Below, one piece after another: positions 2,400 to 14,475 of a stretch of 64,000 nt of DNA (position 1 is the first letter of the stretch; each line of letters opens with the position of its first letter). The notes beneath the pieces were generated by a model that searched no databases, was not told the origin of the DNA, and saw nothing but the letters and a program-made list of their open reading frames with translations. The stretch comes from an uncultured Clostridia bacterium. GTDB taxonomy: Bacteria > Acidobacteriota > Aminicenantia > UBA2199. A program made the translations under genes and the position numbers. The stretch lies in assembly GCA_964479735.1 (NCBI GenBank), contig CAYZNT010000014.1, positions 2,917 through 66,916 of the forward strand, in the 5' to 3' direction.

Positions 2400-3680
2400 T
2401 CACTCCGCCGTGCCGATCCGCAGCGAAAGCAGCGTCGACGGGTCGAGGCCGGCGCGCAGCATGGCGTTCGCCTCCGCGGCGCCCACCGCGTTGAGACGGG
2501 CCTCCCACTCGTTGGTCAGGCGCCAGGAGAGGCCGATGCCTTCCAGGAGGCTCCAGAGGGCGACGCGCCGCTCGCGCGACTCCACCCTCCTCCAGAATTC
2601 CGCCAGGGCGTAGGCCCGGGCGGCTGCCACCCCCGCTTCGTCGATGCCTTGGGCGCGGATCTCGGCCAGGCGCTCATCGAGCGCCGTCGCGGCGGCGCCG
2701 GGGTCGCCGCCGGTCTTCAGCGACAGGTGCAGCAGGGCGGCGGTGCGCAGGGGCTGCAGGCTGGCTTCGACGTCGTAGGTCAGGTGCAGGCGGTCGCGCA
2801 GCGTCCACAGCCGGCTGCCGACGCCCCGGCCCAGCCACGACTCGAGCAGGGTGGCGGTGAAGTAGGCGTGGGCGTCCAGGGCCGGCAGGCGGGCGCTGCG
2901 CGCCAGCAGCGATTCGCCCGCGAGTCGTTCGGCGCCCGCCTCCGGGGCAGGAGCGGACGGGCCGGCCGCCGCCGGGGGGGGGCCGTCCGGGGCGGCGGGC
3001 AGACGGGCGAAGTGACGGGCGAGCCGCTCGTGCAGTTCGTCGGCGGCCAGGTCGCTGACGGCCAGCAGCACCAGGTTGCCGCCATGGAACGAGTGGCGGT
3101 GGCAGGCCTGCACGTCGGGGCGGCGGATGGCCCGGCGCGACGCCTGGGTGCCGAAGGCCGCGCGGCCATAGCCGGCGGAACCGAACGCGGCGGTCGCCTG
3201 CAGGCGGCGCATGCGCGACTCCAGGTCGTCGTCGCCCAGCTTCTCGGCGGTCGCCATCTGCCCCTTGATGGAATCGATGCGCAGGTCCGAGAAGAGCGGG
3301 CGGGCGATGCTCCTGGCCAGGATGGCCAGCGCCGGCTCGAGGTCGGGGGTGTTGACCCGCAGGGTGACGGTGGAGTAGTCCGCGGCGGTCTGCAGGTGAT
3401 AGGTGCAGCCCAGCTGCAGCAGGTGGCGCAGCCGGCCCTCCTCGGGGACTTCCAGCGCCAGGCGGGCGGTCAGGTAGGCCAGCCCCTCCTTGCCGGCGGG
3501 GTCGGACGCGCCGCCGCCGCGCACCAGCAGGTGCACCACCGTGAACGCCGCCGCCGCGTCGTGCTGGCAGACGACCCGCAGCCCGTTGTCCAGCACGCGC
3601 TCCTGCGGTTCGGCAGGCTGCCCGCGGGCGAGGACCGGCAGGGCCAGCAGCCCCAGCAGCACGGCGCAGCGGCGGCTCAT
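2400..3680 (-). CDS. M16B family peptidase-like protein, probable non-catalytic partner subunit
   Basis: The start MSRRCAVLLGLLALPVLA is a signal peptide; its ATG is the complement of 3678-3680 and overlaps the upstream M16 stop by 4 nt. It has the M16 fold, but YLTARL replaces the HxxEH zinc motif. The N-terminal extension of the 923-aa track ORF is low-complexity and was not called. Confidence 0.7.
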   Translation of the reverse strand: MSRRCAVLLGLLALPVLARGQPAEPQERVLDNGLRVVCQHDAAAAFTVVHLLVRGGGASDPAGKEGLAYLTARLALEVPEEGRLRHLLQLGCTYHLQTAADYSTVTLRVNTPDLEPALAILARSIARPLFSDLRIDSIKGQMATAEKLGDDDLESRMRRLQATAAFGSAGYGRAAFGTQASRRAIRRPDVQACHRHSFHGGNLVLLAVSDLAADELHERLARHFARLPAAPDGPPPAAAGPSAPAPEAGAERLAGESLLARSARLPALDAHAYFTATLLESWLGRGVGSRLWTLRDRLHLTYDVEASLQPLRTAALLHLSLKTGGDPGAAATALDERLAEIRAQGIDEAGVAAARAYALAEFWRRVESRERRVALWSLLEGIGLSWRLTNEWEARLNAVGAAEANAMLRAGLDPSTLLSLRIGTAE

Positions 3681-5014
3681 CGTTCCACCGGCACCACGGC
3701 CACGGTCACCCACTTGCGGCCGGCGAAGCACGTCCCGCCCACGCGGCGCAGGTCGGCGGAGCGCACCGCCTCCAGGCTGTCGTCCCGGCTGTCGGCTCTG
3801 TCGTCGCCGAGCAGCAGGAACCGGGCGGCGGCCGAGCTGAGGTTGAGGGCCGACTCGCCATAACTGCCCCCCTCCATGGCCATCTGCCGGCGGGCGGAAT
3901 CCAGCAGGTCGAACGCCTGCGCCTGGTAGGCCGGCGGGAAGTCGAGGCGGCTGAAGTTGAGCTGGCGGATGCCGGACAGGAAACGCGCCAGCCTTCCCTG
4001 CACGTTGCGCACCTGGCGCGCCGGCAGCAGCAGGTGCAGCAGCATGGCGCCGCCGTGGCGCATGGGCAGGTAGCGCATCTCCAGGCGGTCGACCTCCTCG
4101 AAGGGGCCGCGCAATGCGCCCGCCAGCAGCGGGTTGAGGCCGCGGCCGAGAATGAAGGCCAGAACCCCGAGAGCCGCCCGGTCCGGGTCGTTGTAGCCGC
4201 CGACCGGCCAGGCGACGAACAGGTGGGCCTGGCGGACGTCGAGCCGGATCTCGGCCGACTGGCTTTTCGTCAATGCCGGAGGCGGCGGCAGCGGGGCGGC
4301 GGCGGGCTCCGCCCGGCCGCCTTCCCAGGTGCGCCGGATTTCCGCCTCCATGTCGGCGGCGGCGAAGTCGCCCACCAGCGCCAGCGAACAGCGGGCCGGC
4401 ACCAGCAGGCGGCGGTGCAGCTCCTCCATCTCGGCCAGGGTGGCGGCGGCGATCGCCTGCGGGTCGCCCTCGATCGGGCGGCCGTAGGGATGGGAGCCGA
4501 ACAGCAGCTGCAGCGCCCGCAGCCTGCCGGCGGTGGCGGGCTCGTCGCGCAGCTGGGCGATCTCCTCGGCGAGGATGCGCTTCTCGGCCTCCAGGTGCTC
4601 CGCCTGCAGGCGCGGAAGGAAAACCTGCTCGCGCAGTCGGGCCAGCGCCCAGGCGGCGTGGGCGGCGGGGGCGCTGTACTCGAAGGTGATCAAATCGACG
4701 TCGGTGTGGGCGTTGGCCTGGACGCCGCGCGCGCGAAGCCGGGCCAGGCGCTCCGGCCCGGTCGCCTCGCGGGTGGCTCCGAAGAGCAGCAGGTGCTCCA
4801 GCAGGTGCGGCCAGCCCGCCGGCGCGGCGGCGGCGGGGGAGAGGTCCGCCGCCAGGGTCATGGCGCAGAGCGGCAGGTCGCGCTTCTCCTGCAGGATGAC
4901 CCGCAGCCCGTTGTCGAGGGTGAAGCGACGGAACCCCGTCTCCCCATCCGCGATGGCGGCCAGGGAGAGGGAGAACAGCGCACCGGCGATCAGGCCCCGC
5001 TGGCTGGCGATCAT
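3677..5014 (-). CDS. M16 family zinc metallopeptidase (pitrilysin/insulinase-like), active subunit
   Basis: 445 aa with an N-terminal signal-like region and the inverted zinc-binding motif HLLEH (HxxEH). It is translationally coupled to the downstream M16 paralog. Confidence 0.8.
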   Translation of the reverse strand: MIASQRGLIAGALFSLSLAAIADGETGFRRFTLDNGLRVILQEKRDLPLCAMTLAADLSPAAAAPAGWPHLLEHLLLFGATREATGPERLARLRARGVQANAHTDVDLITFEYSAPAAHAAWALARLREQVFLPRLQAEHLEAEKRILAEEIAQLRDEPATAGRLRALQLLFGSHPYGRPIEGDPQAIAAATLAEMEELHRRLLVPARCSLALVGDFAAADMEAEIRRTWEGGRAEPAAAPLPPPPALTKSQSAEIRLDVRQAHLFVAWPVGGYNDPDRAALGVLAFILGRGLNPLLAGALRGPFEEVDRLEMRYLPMRHGGAMLLHLLLPARQVRNVQGRLARFLSGIRQLNFSRLDFPPAYQAQAFDLLDSARRQMAMEGGSYGESALNLSSAAARFLLLGDDRADSRDDSLEAVRSADLRRVGGTCFAGRKWVTVAVVPVER

Positions 5015-5151
5015 GACCGGATTCTAGCACGGGGCGGCCGAAGCGGCAATCCGGGAACCGTGGCCGGCCGGCATTCCGTTCCGCGCGGCTTGAGATCAAC
5101 CTGACGAATGCGGTATTATTCATGTGCTGCTCAACCCCAAGGAGGTTTTTC

Positions 5152-6711
5152 ATGCAGACCTGGAAACGCATATCGCTGATCCTGGCATTGGCCGTCGCCT
5201 TAGCGCCCCTGTGGGCCGGCGGCGCGCCGTCCGATCCCCAGCCGCTGGCCAGCCTGCTGGTCGGTCCCTACGGCATCGACTGGCTGCCGAAGGTCAGCGC
5301 CGGCTCGTTCACCCTGAGAGTCGCCGGCCCCACCGGCGTCTTCCTGGCCAAGACCTTCCCCGGCGGCAAGACCCCGCGCTTCGAGGTTTCGGACCTCGCC
5401 GGCTCCTGCCCGGACGGCATCTACACCTGGGAGTTGCGGGCCAGCCCTCAGGGTGCGCCCGCGGTCCGCGGTGACGAGACGGGCGTGCCACCCGCGGGGG
5501 CCCCGGAAGCCCTCTCCCAGTCCGGCCACTTCCGCGTCTTGGGCGGCTCGATCCTGGTCCCGGCGGCCAAGGAGCCGCGGCTGGCCGGACCGCTGGACGT
5601 GGTGCACGCCGACGACGTGATCGTCACCGGGTCGCTCTGCATCGGCTACGACTGCGCCACGGACGGATCGGAGGATTTCGGCTTCGACACCATCAAGATG
5701 AAGGAAAACAACCTCCAGATCTTCTTCGACGACACCTCGACGACCGCCGGCTTCCCGGCCAACGACTGGCGCCTCATCGCCAACGACTCCGCCAGCGGCG
5801 GCGGCAACTACTTCTCGATCGCAGACGCGACCAACTCCAGGGTGCCGTTCAAGATCGAGGCCGGCGCCCCCACCAGCGCCCTCTACGTCGACGACTCCGG
5901 CCGGGTCGGCCTGGGCACCGCCACTCCCGTTCTCGACCTGCACATCCTCTCCGGCAATACCCCCTCCATCCGCCTCGACCAGGACACGACGTCCGGCTGG
6001 ACGGCCCAGGTTTGGGACATCGCTGCCAACGAGTCCAATTTCTTTTTACGCGACACCACCGGCGGCTCGAAACTGCCCTTCCGCATCCAGCCCGGGGCTC
6101 CCACCAACACGCTGACGATGAAGTCGACCGGCTACGTGGGCATCGGCACCTGGTCGCCCGAGAGCCACCTGGAAATCGAGGCCACCGGCGCCAACGTCGT
6201 GCTGGCCGTCCAGCGCACGGACGGCGCCACCATGAAATTGAGCGCCATGGGCAGCTCGGGGCAGATCGGCACGGTCACCGAGCACGCCCTGAACTTCATG
6301 ACCAACAACGTCAAGCGGCTGTCGGTGGGCGCCTCGACGGGCAACGTCGGCATCGGCGTGACGTCCCCGACCTACCCCCTGCACATGGCCAGCGGCGCCT
6401 ATTGTTCGGCCGGCGGGGCGTGGACCAATGCCTCGAGCATCGCCTTCAAGCAGAACGTCCAGGCCCTGGGGCTGGCGGATGCGCGCCGGGCGCTGGCCGA
6501 CCTGCGTCCGGTGTCGTTCGCCTACAAGGCGGACCCCGGCGAGGAGCACCTGGGGTTCATCGCCGAGGAGGTGCCGGAACTGGTGGCCACGGGTGACCGC
6601 CAGGGCCTGAGCCCGATGGACATCGTGGCGGTGCTGACCCGGGTGGTGCAGGAACAGCAGAAGACCATCGCCGAGCTGCGCGAACGCGTGGAGCAGCTGG
6701 AAAAGCGGTAA
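5152..6711 (+). CDS. secreted fibre-like protein with a C-terminal intramolecular chaperone (peptidase S74 / tail-fibre ICD) domain, paralog 1
   Basis: An RBS (aaggagg) precedes the ATG at 5152, and the signal peptide is MQTWKRISLILALAVALAPLWAGGA. The C-terminus matches the endosialidase/tail-fibre chaperone domain (SSIAFKQNVQAL...LRPVSFAYK...HLGFIAEEVPELV...MDIVAVLTRVVQEQQKTIAELRERVEQLE). The middle has two ~80-aa beta-rich internal repeats (FDDTS..ANDW..GAPT..VGLGT). Confidence 0.7.
   Translation: MQTWKRISLILALAVALAPLWAGGAPSDPQPLASLLVGPYGIDWLPKVSAGSFTLRVAGPTGVFLAKTFPGGKTPRFEVSDLAGSCPDGIYTWELRASPQGAPAVRGDETGVPPAGAPEALSQSGHFRVLGGSILVPAAKEPRLAGPLDVVHADDVIVTGSLCIGYDCATDGSEDFGFDTIKMKENNLQIFFDDTSTTAGFPANDWRLIANDSASGGGNYFSIADATNSRVPFKIEAGAPTSALYVDDSGRVGLGTATPVLDLHILSGNTPSIRLDQDTTSGWTAQVWDIAANESNFFLRDTTGGSKLPFRIQPGAPTNTLTMKSTGYVGIGTWSPESHLEIEATGANVVLAVQRTDGATMKLSAMGSSGQIGTVTEHALNFMTNNVKRLSVGASTGNVGIGVTSPTYPLHMASGAYCSAGGAWTNASSIAFKQNVQALGLADARRALADLRPVSFAYKADPGEEHLGFIAEEVPELVATGDRQGLSPMDIVAVLTRVVQEQQKTIAELRERVEQLEKR
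6211..6674 (+). repeat. 464-bp perfect direct repeat, copy 1 (3' end of fibre paralog 1)
   Basis: I found no mismatches against 7917-8380 (offset 1706 bp) by direct comparison. The ORF track shows identical sub-ORFs 6428..6610 / 8134..8316 and 6132..6353 / 7838..8059. Confidence 0.85.
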
Positions 6712-6737
6712 CCCACGAGCCTTCGCCGCGAATTCAT

Positions 6738-6782
6738 CCCCGGGCGGATGATGTCCCGTCCGCCCGGGGGAGGCGGTTTCTT
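6738..6782 (+). terminator. GC-rich hairpin downstream of paralog 1
   Basis: ccccgggcgga (6738-6748) pairs with tccgcccgggg (6759-6769), giving an 11-bp stem and 10-nt loop, followed by a ggcggtttctt T-containing tail. The next gene has its own promoter TTGAAA (6781-6786), 17-nt spacer, TACAAT (6804-6809). Confidence 0.4.
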
Positions 6783-6866
6783 GAAAAACCGGTTGCGTCC
6801 CGGTACAATCCCCCTTGCTTTCTGGTCCGCCTGGTTCCGATAGCGAATACGCAGGAGGTAGCGGAG

Positions 6867-8447
6867 ATGAAAACGTGGATCGGGTTGATTTTGGTTTGCA
6901 TCCTGCTTCTCGCCTCAGCGAATGGCCTGGCCGCCGCCGACCGTAACCCGGTGGCAGGATCCCTGGTCGGCCCGTATGGAATCGACTGGCTGCCCAAGGT
7001 CGGATACGGGGCGTTGCGCCTGACCGTTTCCGGTCCGCAGGGGGTCTTCCTGACAAAGAGTTTCCCGGGCGGCAAGACCCCGCGCTTCGAACTCAGCGAG
7101 ATCAAGGAGGGATGCCCGGACGGCATCTATACGTACGAACTGCGGGTGCAGGCTGCTGCGCGCCCGGAAAACCGCGATGGAACGCCCGATGCGTCCATCG
7201 CCGATACCCAGCGTCCGCTCATTCAGTCCGGCCATTTCCGCATCCGCGGCGGAGCGATCGTCGTCGCTTCCGGGGTGGAGGCCGGTACCGCGCCGCGCGA
7301 CGGCATCCTGGCCACCTACAACGAGGACTTGTACGTCAAGGGTTCTCTTTGCGTCGGCACCGACTGCGCCGATCCGGAGACATGGAACTACGACGTGATC
7401 CGGATGAAGGAGAACAACCTGCGCATCCATTTCGACGACACCAGCAGCACATCCTCGTTCCCGGCCAACGACTGGCGCATCGTCCTCAACGACTCCTCAG
7501 ACGGCGGCGGCAACTATTTCGCCGTGGAGGATTCGACGTCCGGGGACGTGCCGTTCACGATCGAGGCCGGCGCCCCCGCGAACTCGCTCTTCGTGGAAGA
7601 CTATGGCCGCATCGGCCTGAAGACCTCGACCCCGGCGGTCGAGCTGCACATGGTCGACGGCGACTCGCCGGCTGTGCGCCTGGACCAGGACACCACCTCG
7701 GGCTGGACGGCGCAGGCGTGGGACCTCGTCGGCAACGAAAGCAACTTCTTCGTGCGGGACGTCACCAACTCAGCCAGAATCCCTTTCCGCATCCAGCCGG
7801 GGACGCCTTCGAGCACCCTGAGCCTCAAGTCCTCGGGCTACGTGGGCATCGGCACCTGGTCGCCGGAATACAACCTGGAGGTCGAAGGCACGTCTGCCAA
7901 CGTCACCCTGGGCGTGCAGCGCACGGACGGCGCCACCATGAAATTGAGCGCCATGGGCAGCTCGGGGCAGATCGGCACGGTCACCGAGCACGCCCTGAAC
8001 TTCATGACCAACAACGTCAAGCGGCTGTCGGTGGGCGCCTCGACGGGCAACGTCGGCATCGGCGTGACGTCCCCGACCTACCCCCTGCACATGGCCAGCG
8101 GCGCCTATTGTTCGGCCGGCGGGGCGTGGACCAATGCCTCGAGCATCGCCTTCAAGCAGAACGTCCAGGCCCTGGGGCTGGCGGATGCGCGCCGGGCGCT
8201 GGCCGACCTGCGTCCGGTGTCGTTCGCCTACAAGGCGGACCCCGGCGAGGAGCACCTGGGGTTCATCGCCGAGGAGGTGCCGGAACTGGTGGCCACGGGT
8301 GACCGCCAGGGCCTGAGCCCGATGGACATCGTGGCGGTGCTGACCCGGGTGGTGCAGGAACAGCAGAAGACCATCGCCGATCAGCGCCGGGAGCTGGCCG
8401 AACTCGGCCGGCGCGTGGCCGAACTGGAGAGCAGGGAGACGCGGTAG
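6867..8447 (+). CDS. secreted fibre-like protein with a C-terminal intramolecular chaperone (peptidase S74 / tail-fibre ICD) domain, paralog 2
   Basis: An RBS (aggagg) precedes the ATG, and the signal peptide is MKTWIGLILVCILLLASANGLAAA. It shares domain order with 5152..6711 (conserved N-terminal domain VGPYGIDWLPKV...FPGGKTPRFE...CPDGIYT.ELR, two internal repeats). The C-terminal ICD is nucleotide-identical to paralog 1 over 464 bp, then diverges in the last ~20 codons. Confidence 0.7.
   Translation: MKTWIGLILVCILLLASANGLAAADRNPVAGSLVGPYGIDWLPKVGYGALRLTVSGPQGVFLTKSFPGGKTPRFELSEIKEGCPDGIYTYELRVQAAARPENRDGTPDASIADTQRPLIQSGHFRIRGGAIVVASGVEAGTAPRDGILATYNEDLYVKGSLCVGTDCADPETWNYDVIRMKENNLRIHFDDTSSTSSFPANDWRIVLNDSSDGGGNYFAVEDSTSGDVPFTIEAGAPANSLFVEDYGRIGLKTSTPAVELHMVDGDSPAVRLDQDTTSGWTAQAWDLVGNESNFFVRDVTNSARIPFRIQPGTPSSTLSLKSSGYVGIGTWSPEYNLEVEGTSANVTLGVQRTDGATMKLSAMGSSGQIGTVTEHALNFMTNNVKRLSVGASTGNVGIGVTSPTYPLHMASGAYCSAGGAWTNASSIAFKQNVQALGLADARRALADLRPVSFAYKADPGEEHLGFIAEEVPELVATGDRQGLSPMDIVAVLTRVVQEQQKTIADQRRELAELGRRVAELESRETR
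7917..8380 (+). repeat. 464-bp perfect direct repeat, copy 2 (3' end of fibre paralog 2)
   Basis: Identity begins at cagcgcacggacggcgcc and ends at aagaccatcgccga. The flanks on both sides diverge. Confidence 0.85.
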
Positions 8448-8475
8448 GGATCCCGGCGGGAGTCGGGAGGGGCAA

Positions 8476-10290
8476 TTGGCGGACGATCGGGACGCGGAAG
8501 TGGCGGAGAGGCAGGTGCCCGGCATATCCGGAAGGGGGCTGGACGGCAGGGGAGTCCGTCGGGCGCTTCCCCTGATGTTGGTGCTGCTGGCCGCCGCCTG
8601 CGCCCGCCCCTCCCTGCGCCAGGCGGAGACCTGGCGCGCCGGCCACGACTACGACAAGGCGCTGGCGCGCTACCTGAAGGCGCTGCGTGAAAGGCCCCAG
8701 GACATCCAGCTGAAGCTGGCCGTGGACGGCCTGCTGAAGGAGGCCGCCGCCTGGTACGGGGCCCGCGCCGCCCAGCTGGAGCAGGAGGGCCATGCCGCCC
8801 TCGCGCTCCAGCTCTACCGCAAGGCGCTGGAGTACGATCCCGGCGACCGTCGCACCCGACAGAGGCTGCAGGAGCTGCAGCGGCCGGGGGAAGGGGTCGA
8901 GACCATCGAGAGCCAGGCGCACGGGGCCGAGCTGGCGGTGAGCGTGCCGCCGTCCCTGGCCAGCCCGGAGCGGATCGACGTGGACTTCCGCCACAAGACC
9001 GGGTTGCTGGCCATCCTGCGCGTGCTGGCCCAGAGCGGCGGGGTCAACCTTCTGTTCGACCCGGATCTGGCCGACAAGCCGGTGGCGGTCACCCTGCGCC
9101 AGGTCACCCTGCGCGAGGCGCTGGACCGGATCTGCCAGATCTCCGAGAGCCGCTACTTCGTGCTGGACGGGCGCAACATCCTGGTGGCGCCGGACACCGA
9201 GAGCGCCCGGTCCCGCTACCAGGAGCTGGTCGTCAAGAACATCTACTTCTCCAACGTCGAGGCCGACGAGGCCAAGCGCATCATGGAGCAGGCCGCCCGG
9301 CTCCAGCGGCTGATCGTCAACAAGCCGAGCAACTCGCTCATCGTCGCCGATTCCGCCGAGAACGTCGTCCTGGCCGAAAGGCTCGCCCGCTTCATCGACA
9401 AGCGCAAGGGCGAGGTGGAGATCGACGTCGAGATCATGGAGGTGGACCGCAAGCGGCTGAAGCAGTACGGCACCGAGCTGTCGTCGTGGAGCGTCGGCGC
9501 CGCCCTGAGCGGAAGCGGGGGCGGCCTCTCCGCGGACGCGCTCCGGGCGGTCGACCTGTCGGCCGACGTCCTGCTGTCGGTGCCGCAGGCGGTCTGGCGC
9601 TTCATGGCCACCGTCACCGATTCGAAGATCCTGGCCCAGCCCAAGGTGCGCGGCATGGACAAGGAGCGGGTGGAGATCCAGCTCGGCGAAAAGCGCCCCA
9701 TCCCGACCACCACGTTCGTTCCCCTCTCCCAGGGCAGCCTCAACCAGCAGCCGATCACCTCCTACAGCATGACCGACGTCGGCATCACCCTGAACATCAC
9801 CCCGACCATCCATCTCAACGAGGAGGTGACCCTCGAGCTGGTGTTCAGCCTGACCTACGTCATCGACATCGGCAGCGCGACCCTGCCGCCGACGCTGGGC
9901 AACCGCCGGGTGACCACCCGGCTGCGCCTGCGCACCGGCGAGACGGGCATCATCGCCGGCTTGATGCGCGGCTCCACCACCACCTCGCGCACCGGCGTGC
10001 CGCTGCTCAACGACATCCCCCTGCTGCGCGACCTCTTCTCGTCCAACCGGCGCGAGCACGAGCGCACCGACATCCTGCTGAGCATCACCCCCCGCATCCT
10101 GCGCATGCCCGAGATCACCCGTGGCGACCTCGAGCCCCATTTCATCGGCACCGAGGCCCGGCCCGGGCTGCAGCGCGCCCGGGAGGCCCCCCCGGCCCCG
10201 CCTCCCCCCGCCCCGGCCCCGGTGAAGAAGGGGAAACCCGGGCGCAAGAAGGCGAACCCGGACGCGGCCCAGGCGGCTCCGCCGGGGTGA
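8476..10290 (+). CDS. secretin family outer-membrane channel lipoprotein (PilQ/GspD-like) with an N-terminal TPR region
   Basis: A possible TTG start at 8476 follows a gggagg RBS; the alternative ATG is at 8575. A lipobox-like LLAAAC is present. It has TPR-like helices (YDKALARYLKALRER, LALQLYRKALEYDP), an N0/STN-like domain (IDVDFRHKTGLLAILRVLAQSGGVNLLFDP), a Secretin_N domain (SLIVADSAENVVLAERLARFIDKRKGEVEIDVEIMEV) and the secretin C-domain (VPLLNDIPLLRDLFSS...ILLSITPRIL). It starts 28 nt after fibre paralog 2. Confidence 0.75.
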   Translation: MADDRDAEVAERQVPGISGRGLDGRGVRRALPLMLVLLAAACARPSLRQAETWRAGHDYDKALARYLKALRERPQDIQLKLAVDGLLKEAAAWYGARAAQLEQEGHAALALQLYRKALEYDPGDRRTRQRLQELQRPGEGVETIESQAHGAELAVSVPPSLASPERIDVDFRHKTGLLAILRVLAQSGGVNLLFDPDLADKPVAVTLRQVTLREALDRICQISESRYFVLDGRNILVAPDTESARSRYQELVVKNIYFSNVEADEAKRIMEQAARLQRLIVNKPSNSLIVADSAENVVLAERLARFIDKRKGEVEIDVEIMEVDRKRLKQYGTELSSWSVGAALSGSGGGLSADALRAVDLSADVLLSVPQAVWRFMATVTDSKILAQPKVRGMDKERVEIQLGEKRPIPTTTFVPLSQGSLNQQPITSYSMTDVGITLNITPTIHLNEEVTLELVFSLTYVIDIGSATLPPTLGNRRVTTRLRLRTGETGIIAGLMRGSTTTSRTGVPLLNDIPLLRDLFSSNRREHERTDILLSITPRILRMPEITRGDLEPHFIGTEARPGLQRAREAPPAPPPPAPAPVKKGKPGRKKANPDAAQAAPPG

Positions 10291-10351
10291 GCCCGCGGCG
10301 TTGACCGGGCCCGGTTTTTCTGTTACAACGGCGCCGACAGGAGGTGTCCGA

Positions 10352-11143
10352 ATGAAGATGCCGCTGTTCCAGGTCGATGCCTTCACCGAAAATCCGTTTC
10401 AGGGAAACCCCGCCGCCGTCTGTCTGCCGCCGAAGCCCTTGCCGGACGAGACGCTGCAGAAGATCGCCGCCGAGATGAACCTTTCCGAAACGGCGTTCCT
10501 GTGGCCAACCGCCGACGGCTGGCACCTGCGCTGGTTCACCCCGCGGGTGGAGGTCGACCTGTGCGGCCATGCCACCCTGGCCAGCGCGACCGTCCTGTAC
10601 GAGCGGGGGCTGCTGGAGAAGACGAGCGTGGCGCGATTCCAGACGCGCAGCGGCCTGCTGAGCGCGGCCTGGCGCAAGGGCTGGATCGAGCTGGACTTCC
10701 CCCGCCGCGAGGTGTCGGTGATGAGGATCCCGCAGCGGATCGTGCGCGCGGTGGGCGTGGCGCCGCTGGCCACCGGCGTATCCGGCGACAATTTCCTCAT
10801 CGAGACCACCAGCCAGGAGGAGGTCGCCCGGGCCCGGCCCGATTTCGTTTCCCTGGCCCGCCTCACCGATCACGGCGTGATCCTCACCAGCCACTACGCG
10901 GCCCCGGAATACGATTTCGTGTCCCGTTTCTTCGCCCCGGCCATCGGCATCAACGAGGACCCGGTGACCGGTTCGGCCCACTGCAGCCTGGCCCCCTATT
11001 GGGCCAAGCGCCTCGGCAAGAGCGAGATGACCGCCTACCAGTCTTCGGCCCGCGGGGGGGTGCTGCGGCTCCGGCTGGAGGCCGAGCGGGTCGCCATATC
11101 CGGCCGGGCGGTGCTGGTCTTCTCCGGCGAGTTGACGGTGTAA
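10352..11143 (+). CDS. PhzF family phenazine-biosynthesis-like isomerase
   Basis: The ATG at 10352 follows a caggagg RBS. The N-terminus MKMPLFQVDAFTENPFQGNPAAV is typical of PhzF, and the protein is ~263 aa. Confidence 0.8.
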   Translation: MKMPLFQVDAFTENPFQGNPAAVCLPPKPLPDETLQKIAAEMNLSETAFLWPTADGWHLRWFTPRVEVDLCGHATLASATVLYERGLLEKTSVARFQTRSGLLSAAWRKGWIELDFPRREVSVMRIPQRIVRAVGVAPLATGVSGDNFLIETTSQEEVARARPDFVSLARLTDHGVILTSHYAAPEYDFVSRFFAPAIGINEDPVTGSAHCSLAPYWAKRLGKSEMTAYQSSARGGVLRLRLEAERVAISGRAVLVFSGELTV

Positions 11144-11315
11144 GCCCGTCGGCCCGGGGTCCACCGGGCGACGAGCCGTCCGGAGCTCGGCCGGACGGCG
11201 CCTGGGCACGTGTTCCCGGCCATTTCCGCCGGCAGGGCATGGCCGGGCGACGAGCCCCCCGCGGCCGCGAGGGACGCATGTTGACAATACTTCCCGCATC
11301 GGCTAGCCTGCCGCC

Positions 11316-12994: not shown

Positions 12995-13273
12995 ATGAAG
13001 AGGGATGTGGTGGCCATCATCGTCGAACAGCGCAACGAAACGGCGGCCCGGGTGCAGCAGGTGCTGACCGGCTGGGGCTGTTGGATCAAGACGCGGCTGG
13101 GCCTGCATGACGGCGTACTCGACCGGTGCGCACCGTCCGGGCTGATCATCCTGGAGATGGTCGGCGAGGACGACCGGATCGCCGAGTGCGTGCGCAAGCT
13201 GAACCTGATCAAGGGGGTGCAGGCGAAGCGCGTCCGCCTGGAACTGCCGGCGGAGGGGGAGGCGGGGGCATGA
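12995..13273 (+). CDS. TM1266-like small regulator (putative iron-only hydrogenase system regulator family)
   Basis: 92 aa; the ATG at 12995 follows a caggagg RBS. The fold is ACT/NikR-like (VVAIIVEQRNETAARVQQVLTGWGCWIKTRLGLH). The promoter is TTGGCA-17-TATGAT at about 12926-12954. Confidence 0.5.
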   Translation: MKRDVVAIIVEQRNETAARVQQVLTGWGCWIKTRLGLHDGVLDRCAPSGLIILEMVGEDDRIAECVRKLNLIKGVQAKRVRLELPAEGEAGA

Positions 13274-14475
13274 ACATCCTGGTCATCAACAGCGGCAGCT
13301 CCTCGATCAAGTTCCAGCTGATGGACATGGACACGCACGCCCCGCGATGCCGGGGGCTGCTGGAGAGGATCAGCCTGGCCGGCGGCATCTTCACCTACGA
13401 GCCGGCGGGCCGGGAAAGGATCAAGACCGGTTGCGACATCCCCAACCACGCCGCCGGCATCCGCATGGTGCTGGACGCCGTCTGCAGCCCGGAGGCGGGC
13501 GTCATCCGCTCCCTGGACGAGATCGCGGCCGTCGGCCACCGCATCGTCCACGGCGGCGAGCGGATCAAGAAGCCGGAAGTGCTGGGCGACGAGGTGGTGG
13601 CCATCGTCCGCGAGTGCAGCAAGCTGGCCCCCCTCCACAACCCGCCCAACCTGACCGGTTTCGAGGCGGTGCGAGACCTCCTTCCCGGGGTGCCCCACGT
13701 CGGCGTCTTCGACACCGCCTTCCACGCCACCATGCCGCCGCACGCCTACGTCTATGCCCTCGACTACGATCTGTACGAGCGCCACGGCATCCGCCGCTTC
13801 GGCTTCCACGGCACCTCGCACCAGTACGTGGCCATGCGCGCCGCCGCCATGCTGGGCAAGCCGCTGGACAATTTCCACTGCGTCACCTGCCACATGGGCA
13901 ACGGGGTCTCCCTGACCGCCGTCCGCGGCGGGCGCTCGGTGGACACCACGCTCGGCTTCGGCACCATGTGCGGCGTGCCGATGGGCACCCGCGCCGGGGA
14001 CGTCGACCCGGCCATCATCCTGCACCTGATCGACCAACTGGGCATGAGCAGCGCCGAGGTGCACGACCTGCTCTACCGCCGTTCGGGGCTGAAGGGGCTT
14101 GGCGGCCAAACGCCCGACATGCGGGACGTCGAGGCGGCCGCCGCCGCCGGCGACCCGCGCGCGCGCCTGGCGCTGGACGTGTTCTGCCACGCCGCCCGCA
14201 AGTACGTCGCCGCCCTGGCCACCAGCCTGGAGGGGCGGCTCGACGCGGTGGTGTTCACCGCCGGCATCGGCGAGAACTCGCCCGCCACCCGCGCCGGAGT
14301 CTGCCGGGGCCTGGAGTTCATGGGCGTGCACCTGGACCCGTCCCGGAACGAGGTACGCGGCCGCGAGGCGGTCGTCTCGGCCGGCTCCTCGCCGGTCGCG
14401 GTGTTGGTCGTGCCGACCAACGAGGAGCTGATGATCGCCCTCGAGACCCAGCGGGTGGTGAGCGGCACGACCTGA
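13270..14475 (+). CDS. ackA: acetate kinase
   Basis: MNILVINSGSSSIKFQL at the N-terminus, HNPPNL and GTSH motifs, 401 aa. It overlaps the previous gene at ATGA. Confidence 0.9.
   Translation: MNILVINSGSSSIKFQLMDMDTHAPRCRGLLERISLAGGIFTYEPAGRERIKTGCDIPNHAAGIRMVLDAVCSPEAGVIRSLDEIAAVGHRIVHGGERIKKPEVLGDEVVAIVRECSKLAPLHNPPNLTGFEAVRDLLPGVPHVGVFDTAFHATMPPHAYVYALDYDLYERHGIRRFGFHGTSHQYVAMRAAAMLGKPLDNFHCVTCHMGNGVSLTAVRGGRSVDTTLGFGTMCGVPMGTRAGDVDPAIILHLIDQLGMSSAEVHDLLYRRSGLKGLGGQTPDMRDVEAAAAAGDPRARLALDVFCHAARKYVAALATSLEGRLDAVVFTAGIGENSPATRAGVCRGLEFMGVHLDPSRNEVRGREAVVSAGSSPVAVLVVPTNEELMIALETQRVVSGTT

Follow-up and report, generated by a model that had tools for sequence, protein, structure and literature searches.

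Genes A and B, which lie side by side in a 64,000-nt stretch of DNA (hereafter the window) from an uncultured bacterium of the Aminicenantia (lineage UBA2199; GenBank contig CAYZNT010000014.1), encode two related secreted fibre proteins and share, towards their 3' ends, a segment of 464 nt that is identical base for base. It is very likely that this identity was produced by recent gene conversion between old tandem paralogs. The genes and the two copies of the tract are listed below; residue numbering for gene A counts from 5122, where its open reading frame (ORF; 529 aa) opens.

5152-6711, + strand: gene A, ORF for a secreted S74-type fibre protein, 519 aa from the ATG at 5152
6211-6674, + strand: copy 1 of the identical tract, in codons 364-517 of gene A and 2 nt beyond; exact match to 7917-8380
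6867-8447, + strand: gene B, ORF of the tandem paralog of A, 526 aa
7917-8380, + strand: copy 2 of the identical tract, in codons 351-504 of gene B and 2 nt beyond; exact match to 6211-6674

Extent and exactness of the identical tract

Direct base-by-base comparison of 6211-6674 with 7917-8380 revealed 0 mismatches in 464 nt, i.e., the tract and its boundaries are those that a sequence-only reading of the window had proposed, correct to the base, and self-blastn likewise returned two copies of the tract and no others in the whole window. The tract is the longest identical run at the offset of 1706 between the two genes and the sole exact direct repeat of at least 40 nt in the 64 kb, in which no inverted exact 40-mers were found. 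A gapless repeat finder returned only fragments of the tract, and its identity was then checked directly. The identity is genuine, and chance does not account for it: the probability of 464 successive matches is ~1e-66 at a background identity of 0.72 and still only ~1e-21 at 0.90.

On the 5' side, the first mismatch lies at 6210/7916. From ~5220 on, A and B are 42-84% identical in register per 50-nt bin, and in the last ~90 nt before the tract they are 74-84% identical, with a mismatch every few bases. On the 3' side, in-register identity falls to 29-40% within a few bases past 6674/8380. Outside the tract, the two genes have ~67% DNA identity and their products 55-57% protein identity (68% for the whole proteins, tract included); the earlier reading was therefore right to call the remainder of the genes clearly diverged, although its estimate of 60-70% amino acid identity was too high.

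In protein terms, residues 364-517 of A equal residues 351-504 of B. The tract had been described as covering the entire S74 chaperone, and it does take in the whole Pfam S74 match (A 438-487 / B 425-474). However, it also spans the 74 residues of the mature tip that precede the predicted cleavage serine and contain the final capping-loop repeat. Its chaperone portion runs to 'QEQQKTIA' and stops short of the end of the terminal helix by a tail of 12 residues in A and 22 in B. These tails differ in length and sequence, so that homology ends where the tract does, which accounts for its common 3' limit; across relatives, the C-terminal tails vary by heptad-like insertions. A search of Rfam over 4900-8700 (E <= 0.1) for an RNA element hidden in the tract gave 0 matches.

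Evidence for gene conversion

The case for recombination begins with the synonymous sites. Third-codon-position identity between A and B is 0.57 in the N part, which is near saturation for a genome whose GC content at third codon positions (GC3) is ~0.9, and 1.00 in the tract. The relatives with tandem copies used for comparison were taken from species-representative genomes (among them L001, which is UBA6072, and L003, which is UBA2190). In the segment that corresponds to the tract, the window shares 77-81% amino acid identity with the closest of these, L001-L004, yet of the 118-125 codons that specify the same amino acid in both, 27-30 carry synonymous differences. Because ~24% of such codons differ from the closest relatives and none differ between the two copies of the tract, selection at the protein level is insufficient and recombination is required. 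The suggestion that the C-terminal module has simply been maintained in identical form by selection thus fails when taken alone, as it cannot yield identity at all synonymous sites.

Exact 3' tracts are also present in other metagenome-assembled genomes (MAGs). They measure 170-355 nt among the three copies of L001, 173 nt in L003 and 206 nt in L012, and in L004 a tract of 1342 nt takes in nearly the whole gene. In a codon-aligned sliding profile, the homogenised zone of the relatives starts at variable positions and ends near the same column. In L012, it covers the tip that precedes the cleavage site and not the chaperone.

Trees of the two parts of the genes disagree with each other. In the N-part tree, the first copies of L001 and L003 group together, as do their second copies, with bootstrap support of 100% each; in the C-part tree, copies group by genome instead (85% for all three copies of L001, 99% for L003 and 100% for the window). 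This disagreement bears the classical signature of concerted evolution, which would have proceeded by gene conversion after speciation.

The same tendency was found across the family in 14 genomes with arrays, which supplied 33 within-genome and 708 between-genome pairs of copies. Within genomes, C-part identity exceeded N-part identity by 0.118, and the difference was positive in 31 of the 33 pairs and in 12 of the 14 genomes. Between genomes, the difference was only +0.006 (n=708; Mann-Whitney p = 1.5e-10 for the comparison with within-genome pairs). As between-genome pairs lack the difference, the 3' bias belongs to copies that reside in the same genome, and it cannot be put down to a C part that evolves more slowly. 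An independent five-copy array from a Joint Genome Institute metagenome follows the same 3' trend.

Synonymous identity, incongruent trees, tracts in relatives and the family-wide 3' bias together make recent gene conversion, one of the two options offered by the sequence-only reading, the best-supported cause. In the proposed course of events, the 3' third of one copy would have overwritten that of the other by intrachromosomal, non-reciprocal homologous recombination, presumably along a RecA-dependent pathway. The tract would end on its 3' side where homology stops, i.e., at coiled-coil tails with unequal numbers of heptads, followed by unrelated DNA, and its 5' end could represent the stochastic end of a heteroduplex inside the beta-helix. 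The event in A and B would belong to a concerted evolution of the 3' third that continues throughout the family, and the shared 3' segment would at the same time offer a substrate for unequal crossovers that alter copy number.

GC3 is 0.94 in the tract (6211-6672), 0.91 in the N part of A (5122-6210; 0.91 also for gene A as a whole) and 0.85 in the N part of B (6867-7916), which slightly favours A as the donor or a GC bias of conversion. Codon usage is nonetheless not decisive for the direction of conversion, since in the homologous region that adjoins the tract the values are 0.93 (A) and 0.90 (B) and the difference has nearly gone.

Several points weigh against gene conversion as described here. 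In the N-part tree, the order of the duplication of the window's own pair and of its split from L001-L004 is undecided (40% vs 59% bootstrap), so the age of A and B, which we take to be ancient, would rest on their near-saturated synonymous divergence rather than on orthology. Perfect identity may be slightly overstated if the assembler collapsed two near-identical copies. A second assembly of the species was not found in the collections searched, the best other protein being 68% identical, a 27-mer from the tract had 0 exact matches in metagenome contigs, and an exact-sequence query with the database protein for gene A returned nothing. Finally, conversion by itself does not account for the consistent 3' bias; the C part is not slower-evolving between genomes.

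Alternative explanations

Identity may, in addition, have been maintained by selection. Recurrent conversion of the tip and chaperone would then have been favoured, either because the copies form heterotrimers or because they depend on a common receptor, export channel or processing factor, with diversifying selection keeping the N-terminal parts different. Such selection would add to conversion and not replace it, and on balance it appears unlikely. It would fit a 3' bias that recurs across the family and does not stem from slow evolution of the C part, and the S74 domain is a trimerisation chaperone (PMC10769870). Hetero-trimerisation of A and B, as raised by the sequence-only reading, would be plausible. 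However, tract limits differ by genome: they enclose nearly the whole gene in L004, and in L012 the tip without the chaperone, which argues against an explanation centred on the chaperone. Moreover, the C parts are only 66-85% identical in many arrays (L005, L006, L008, L082), so that identity is not required. A neutral, self-reinforcing bias would be enough, as recombination becomes much more frequent with rising identity and indels interrupt the N part.

It is very unlikely that the tract is an artefact of assembly, in which copies that are only near-identical, or a repeat that was collapsed and written twice, were made to look the same, or in which mis-paired paths swapped the tails of the two genes. 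The assembly caveat raised by the sequence-only reading is legitimate; the contig does come from a MAG, an exact repeat of 464 bp exceeds typical short reads, and the species is represented by this one assembly in the collections searched. Against this, one contig can traverse both copies of the repeat only by way of the unique linker 6675-7916, so that the genes must adjoin. Because the tandem layout followed by the same secretin gene is syntenic in relatives (L001, L003 and L004), the adjacency of A and B is no invention of the assembler. Neither junction breaks the reading frame of the genes or their alignment with the family consensus. In MAGs from other studies, the copies are told apart by differences dotted along them (98%), and yet they are homogenised at the 3' end in the same way. 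Even if a few single-nucleotide polymorphisms had been collapsed, the near-identity that was left would still require conversion.

The insertion of one 3' module into both genes from a third source, whether by recent partial duplication or by acquisition of a cassette, is highly improbable: although the module (aa ~406-529) recurs at 54-65% amino acid identity in Nitrospirota, Desulfobacterota, Gemmatimonadota and Cloacimonadota, which speaks for shuffling on a long timescale, a third copy is missing from the window, no match to mobile elements or phage DNA was obtained, the tract lies in register in both genes between homologous flanks, and the sequences nearest to it, at 80%, are the orthologous C parts of L001-L004, as expected for resident sequence.

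Copy-number change and near-full conversion in relatives

The sequence-only reading had also suggested that the repeat could drive deletion or inversion between the copies. Inversion is not expected, as direct repeats give deletion or duplication, and deletion is borne out in a relative. The array has three copies in L001 and two in L003. When copy 2 of L003 (9760-11385) is compared with L001 9727-13115, its body equals copy 2 of L001 (97-100%), whereas its tail and the downstream DNA equal those of copy 3 (88-100%), and the switch falls within the segment that is alike in all copies. Judged by its sequence, this chimera fits an unequal crossover inside the shared 3' module, through which one lineage would have lost a copy by deletion or the other gained one by duplication.

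In L004, the 1342-nt exact tract occupies 8145-9486 and 9890-11231. Because the signal-peptide regions and tails of these copies still differ, the tract represents near-full-length conversion and not a fresh duplication. Copy 2 of L004 combines a 5' end like that of copy 2 and a tail like that of copy 3 with a body overwritten by copy 1.

Gene starts and architecture of the fibre proteins

Gene A most likely starts at the ATG at 5152 and not at 5122. This choice would agree with a good ribosome-binding site (AAGGAGG at 5139-5145, 6 nt before the ATG), with a promoter-like site whose -10 element ends at 5119, and with a database protein (P0001) of 519 aa that is 100% identical to the product of gene A. 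The database protein for gene B (P0002) is encoded on the same 76,546-bp contig. As gene B has its own AGGAGG before the ATG and its own promoter-like site, and a weak terminator-like hairpin follows gene A, the two genes look like separate transcription units, at least in their predicted signals. A consensus scan found 3 promoter-like sites vs 0.1 expected.

5090-5119, + strand: promoter-like TTGAGA-18-TATTAT upstream of gene A, consensus match only
6760-6776, + strand: terminator-like hairpin after gene A, weak (1 found vs 1.7 expected)
6781-6809, + strand: promoter-like TTGAAA-17-TACAAT upstream of gene B, consensus match only
6433-6450, + strand: predicted S74 self-cleavage/catalytic motif SSIAFK of gene A (Ser438...Lys443), inside the tract
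8139-8156, + strand: the same SSIAFK motif in gene B (Ser425...Lys430), inside the tract

The layout of the proteins was derived from a 58-sequence family alignment and from an AlphaFold monomer model of only moderate quality (predicted local distance difference test, pLDDT, 71.5; predicted template modelling score, pTM, 0.38). From the N- to the C-terminus, the proteins consist of a predicted signal peptide, a beta-sandwich, a variable linker, a beta-helix and a Peptidase_S74 chaperone. In the model of A, a hydrophobic signal-like helix (7-26) precedes a confident beta-sandwich (43-145, pLDDT ~88-90) with FN3-like Foldseek matches. A variable, poorly modelled stretch (~148-190) then leads to a long run of short strands (197-430, pLDDT 85-92 over 340-430), and the C-terminus consists of an S74-type domain that ends in a long helix (498-528). 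The beta-helix of both proteins is marked by repeated 'VGIGT..P...L' loops.

Pfam PF13884 (Peptidase_S74) matches A with 35.1 bits (aa 438-487) and B with 35.3 bits (aa 425-474), against a cutoff of 22, whereas NCBIfam has no model for these proteins. S439 and K443 do not vary in the family alignment, and S438 reaches a conservation of at least 90%. The spacing of Ser and Lys in S438-S-I-A-F-K443 is that of SDxxxK, the motif of S74 domains (PMC10769870), with S in place of D at the second position. The chaperone of A and B would thus be expected to drive trimerisation and then to cut itself off at Ser438 (gene A numbering). Among PDB sequences, phmmer matched only the Bdellovibrio proteins Bd2133 (8OND) and Bd3182 (tip, 8OJN), and the match passes through the repeated 'G.VG[IL]GT..P...LH' motif. 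Foldseek with the model of A gave local matches to 8OJN, to the MyRF ICA domain and to FN3 domains; as whole-chain E-values were weak, the local matches alone were used.

Comparison with known systems

The closest evolutionary precedent, by analogy, is provided by the babA/babB and homA/homB genes of Helicobacter pylori. Their 3' segments are similar within a strain through RecA-dependent gene conversion, whereas the 5' and middle regions of babA/babB are similar between strains and the 5' end of homA/homB diverges (PMC3960876); concerted evolution at the 3' end was described by Pride and Blaser (2002), at least as that work is reviewed in PMC3960876. Both cases concern paralogs of surface proteins that are most alike within a genome at their 3' ends and are orthologous or diverged in their 5' and middle parts, and in H. 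pylori intragenomic conversion of the RecA type yields chimeric genes. Nonetheless, A and B are adjacent direct repeats and not dispersed loci, and unequal crossover also alters their copy number. They are predicted to form trimeric fibres of the S74 type, whereas the H. pylori proteins are beta-barrel outer membrane proteins, and their hosts are uncultured environmental Aminicenantes/Acidobacteriota-like bacteria.

At the protein level, the nearest counterparts are the mosaic adhesive trimeric (MAT) fibres of Bdellovibrio bacteriovorus, in particular their S74 subgroup, e.g., Bd3182 (PDB 8OJN, 8OND; Caulton et al. 2024, PMC10769870). Like MAT fibres, A and B are chromosomal and have a beta-helix with a repeated V-G-x-G-x-x-x-P-x-x-x-L motif and a C-terminal S74 chaperone with Ser...Lys. 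Their predicted signal peptide followed by a beta-rich domain may be a further resemblance. The capping-loop motif of the MAT beta-helix, V-G-G/N-pi-x-x-P-x-x-x-L (PMC10769870), occurs three times (VGLGTATPVLDL, VGIGTWSPESHL and VGIGVTSPTYPL) and aligns to Bd2133 (8OND, E 1.3e-4) and to the tip of Bd3182 (8OJN, E 2.3e-4). However, A and B, with 519-526 aa, are about half as long as MAT fibres (~1000 aa) and too short to count as large fibres, and their motif is SSxxxK and not SDxxxK. MATs have conserved N-termini and exchange their tips, whereas A and B have a homogenised tip and chaperone and diverge over their N-terminal two-thirds. No tandem arrays next to a secretin gene are described for MATs (the word 'secretin' occurs 0 times in PMC10769870). 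Given their shorter length and an N-domain whose homology to that of MATs is putative, A and B are termed MAT-like rather than members of the group.

Phage tail fibres and tailspikes (endosialidase K1F, T5 pb1; PF13884) likewise have a C-terminal S74 domain after a beta-helix. Unlike these, A and B have a predicted signal peptide, N-terminal ~300 residues without a phage match, and housekeeping neighbours.

Within this context, the case of A and B adds a clean instance of a familiar process, from a gene family that is as yet uncharacterised, and introduces no new mechanism. It unites conversion tracts, an apparent product of unequal crossover and a family-wide bias towards the 3' third. It follows from such homogenisation that short-read assemblies of these arrays are fragile and that trees built from the S74 end of such genes report the identity of the genome and not the history of the gene. 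The mature tips of co-resident fibres may be identical, in which case functional diversity probably lies in the N-terminal two-thirds.

Chromosomal setting

The neighbours of the array are, in order, genes for D-Ala-D-Ala ligase (Ddl), a GNAT protein, CorA and an M16 peptidase, then A and B, and then a secretin, PhzF, a thioesterase, acetate kinase and a radical-SAM protein. The neighbourhood has ~69% GC and is ordinary chromosome. No blastn match was obtained among 50,697 phage records, and the tail-fibre families of PHROG match only the last ~200 residues (the C-terminal third) of the proteins, the N-terminal ~300 residues having no phage match. A prophage origin is ruled out by these three observations taken together. 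Given the housekeeping neighbourhood and the lack of similarity to the phage records, the array consists of chromosomal genes for secreted, MAT-like fibres of the S74 type rather than of tail-fibre genes from a prophage.

The M16 (insulinase-like) peptidase gene (3677-5014, - strand) is divergent from gene A and lies upstream of it, and it is overlapped by a minus-strand ORF at 2400-5171. In one relative, L080, the array has no adjoining M16 gene.

The adjacent secretin gene

A secretin gene follows the array immediately on its 3' side.

8476-10290, + strand: TPR/STN-secretin gene (Pfam Secretin 2.9e-32; weak TPR, STN and Secretin_N)

Its product, of ~600 aa with the TPR match at its N-terminus, scores far below the cutoff of every secretin-type NCBIfam family. 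A homolog follows the fibre array in L001 (13294-14982), L002 (9818-11473), L003 (11567-13192) and L004 (11541-13241) and lies within the array in L011 (7944-9545). No other genes of a type II secretion system or of type IV pili were seen among the neighbours examined within ~6-10 kb. A universal link between fibres and secretin was rejected, as the secretin occurs only in the window and in these five relatives and is absent around other family members. Where it is present, it may serve as a dedicated export channel for the fibres.

A more far-reaching idea is that tandem S74 fibres and an orphan TPR-secretin form an undescribed fibre-display system of Aminicenantes/Acidobacteriota-like bacteria. 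In such a system, conversion favoured by selection would keep the tip and chaperone identical so that differing paralogs could co-trimerise or use one route of export and processing. This is decidedly improbable; if it were true, a few genes would give rise to combinatorial surface fibres.

The gene family

The fibre family has more than 2000 detectable members, and its named sources are mostly MAGs of Aminicenantes, Acidobacteriota and Thermoanaerobaculia. Members occur as singletons or in tandem arrays of up to five copies or more. A full-text search of the literature found nothing on this family in Aminicenantes/Acidobacteriota.

Some arrays contain copies that depart from the common form. 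The first of the three copies in L014 (543-2126) has an in-frame stop and may be a pseudogene or reflect a sequencing error. In L006, a partial inverted copy (13169-13765, - strand) that comprises residues 337-529 only lies just after an array of four copies. At further loci (L043 and L054-L079, e.g., contigs of Ca. Magnetobacterium casense, Gemmatimonadota CP070758.1 and Cloacimonadota), only the C-terminal ~125-200 residues match. These loci belong to distant phyla, often number several per genome and consist of the tip repeat and the S74 domain, with 54-65% amino acid identity for aa ~406-529. From their sequences, it appears that the module of tip repeat and S74 domain has been shuffled between fibre families.

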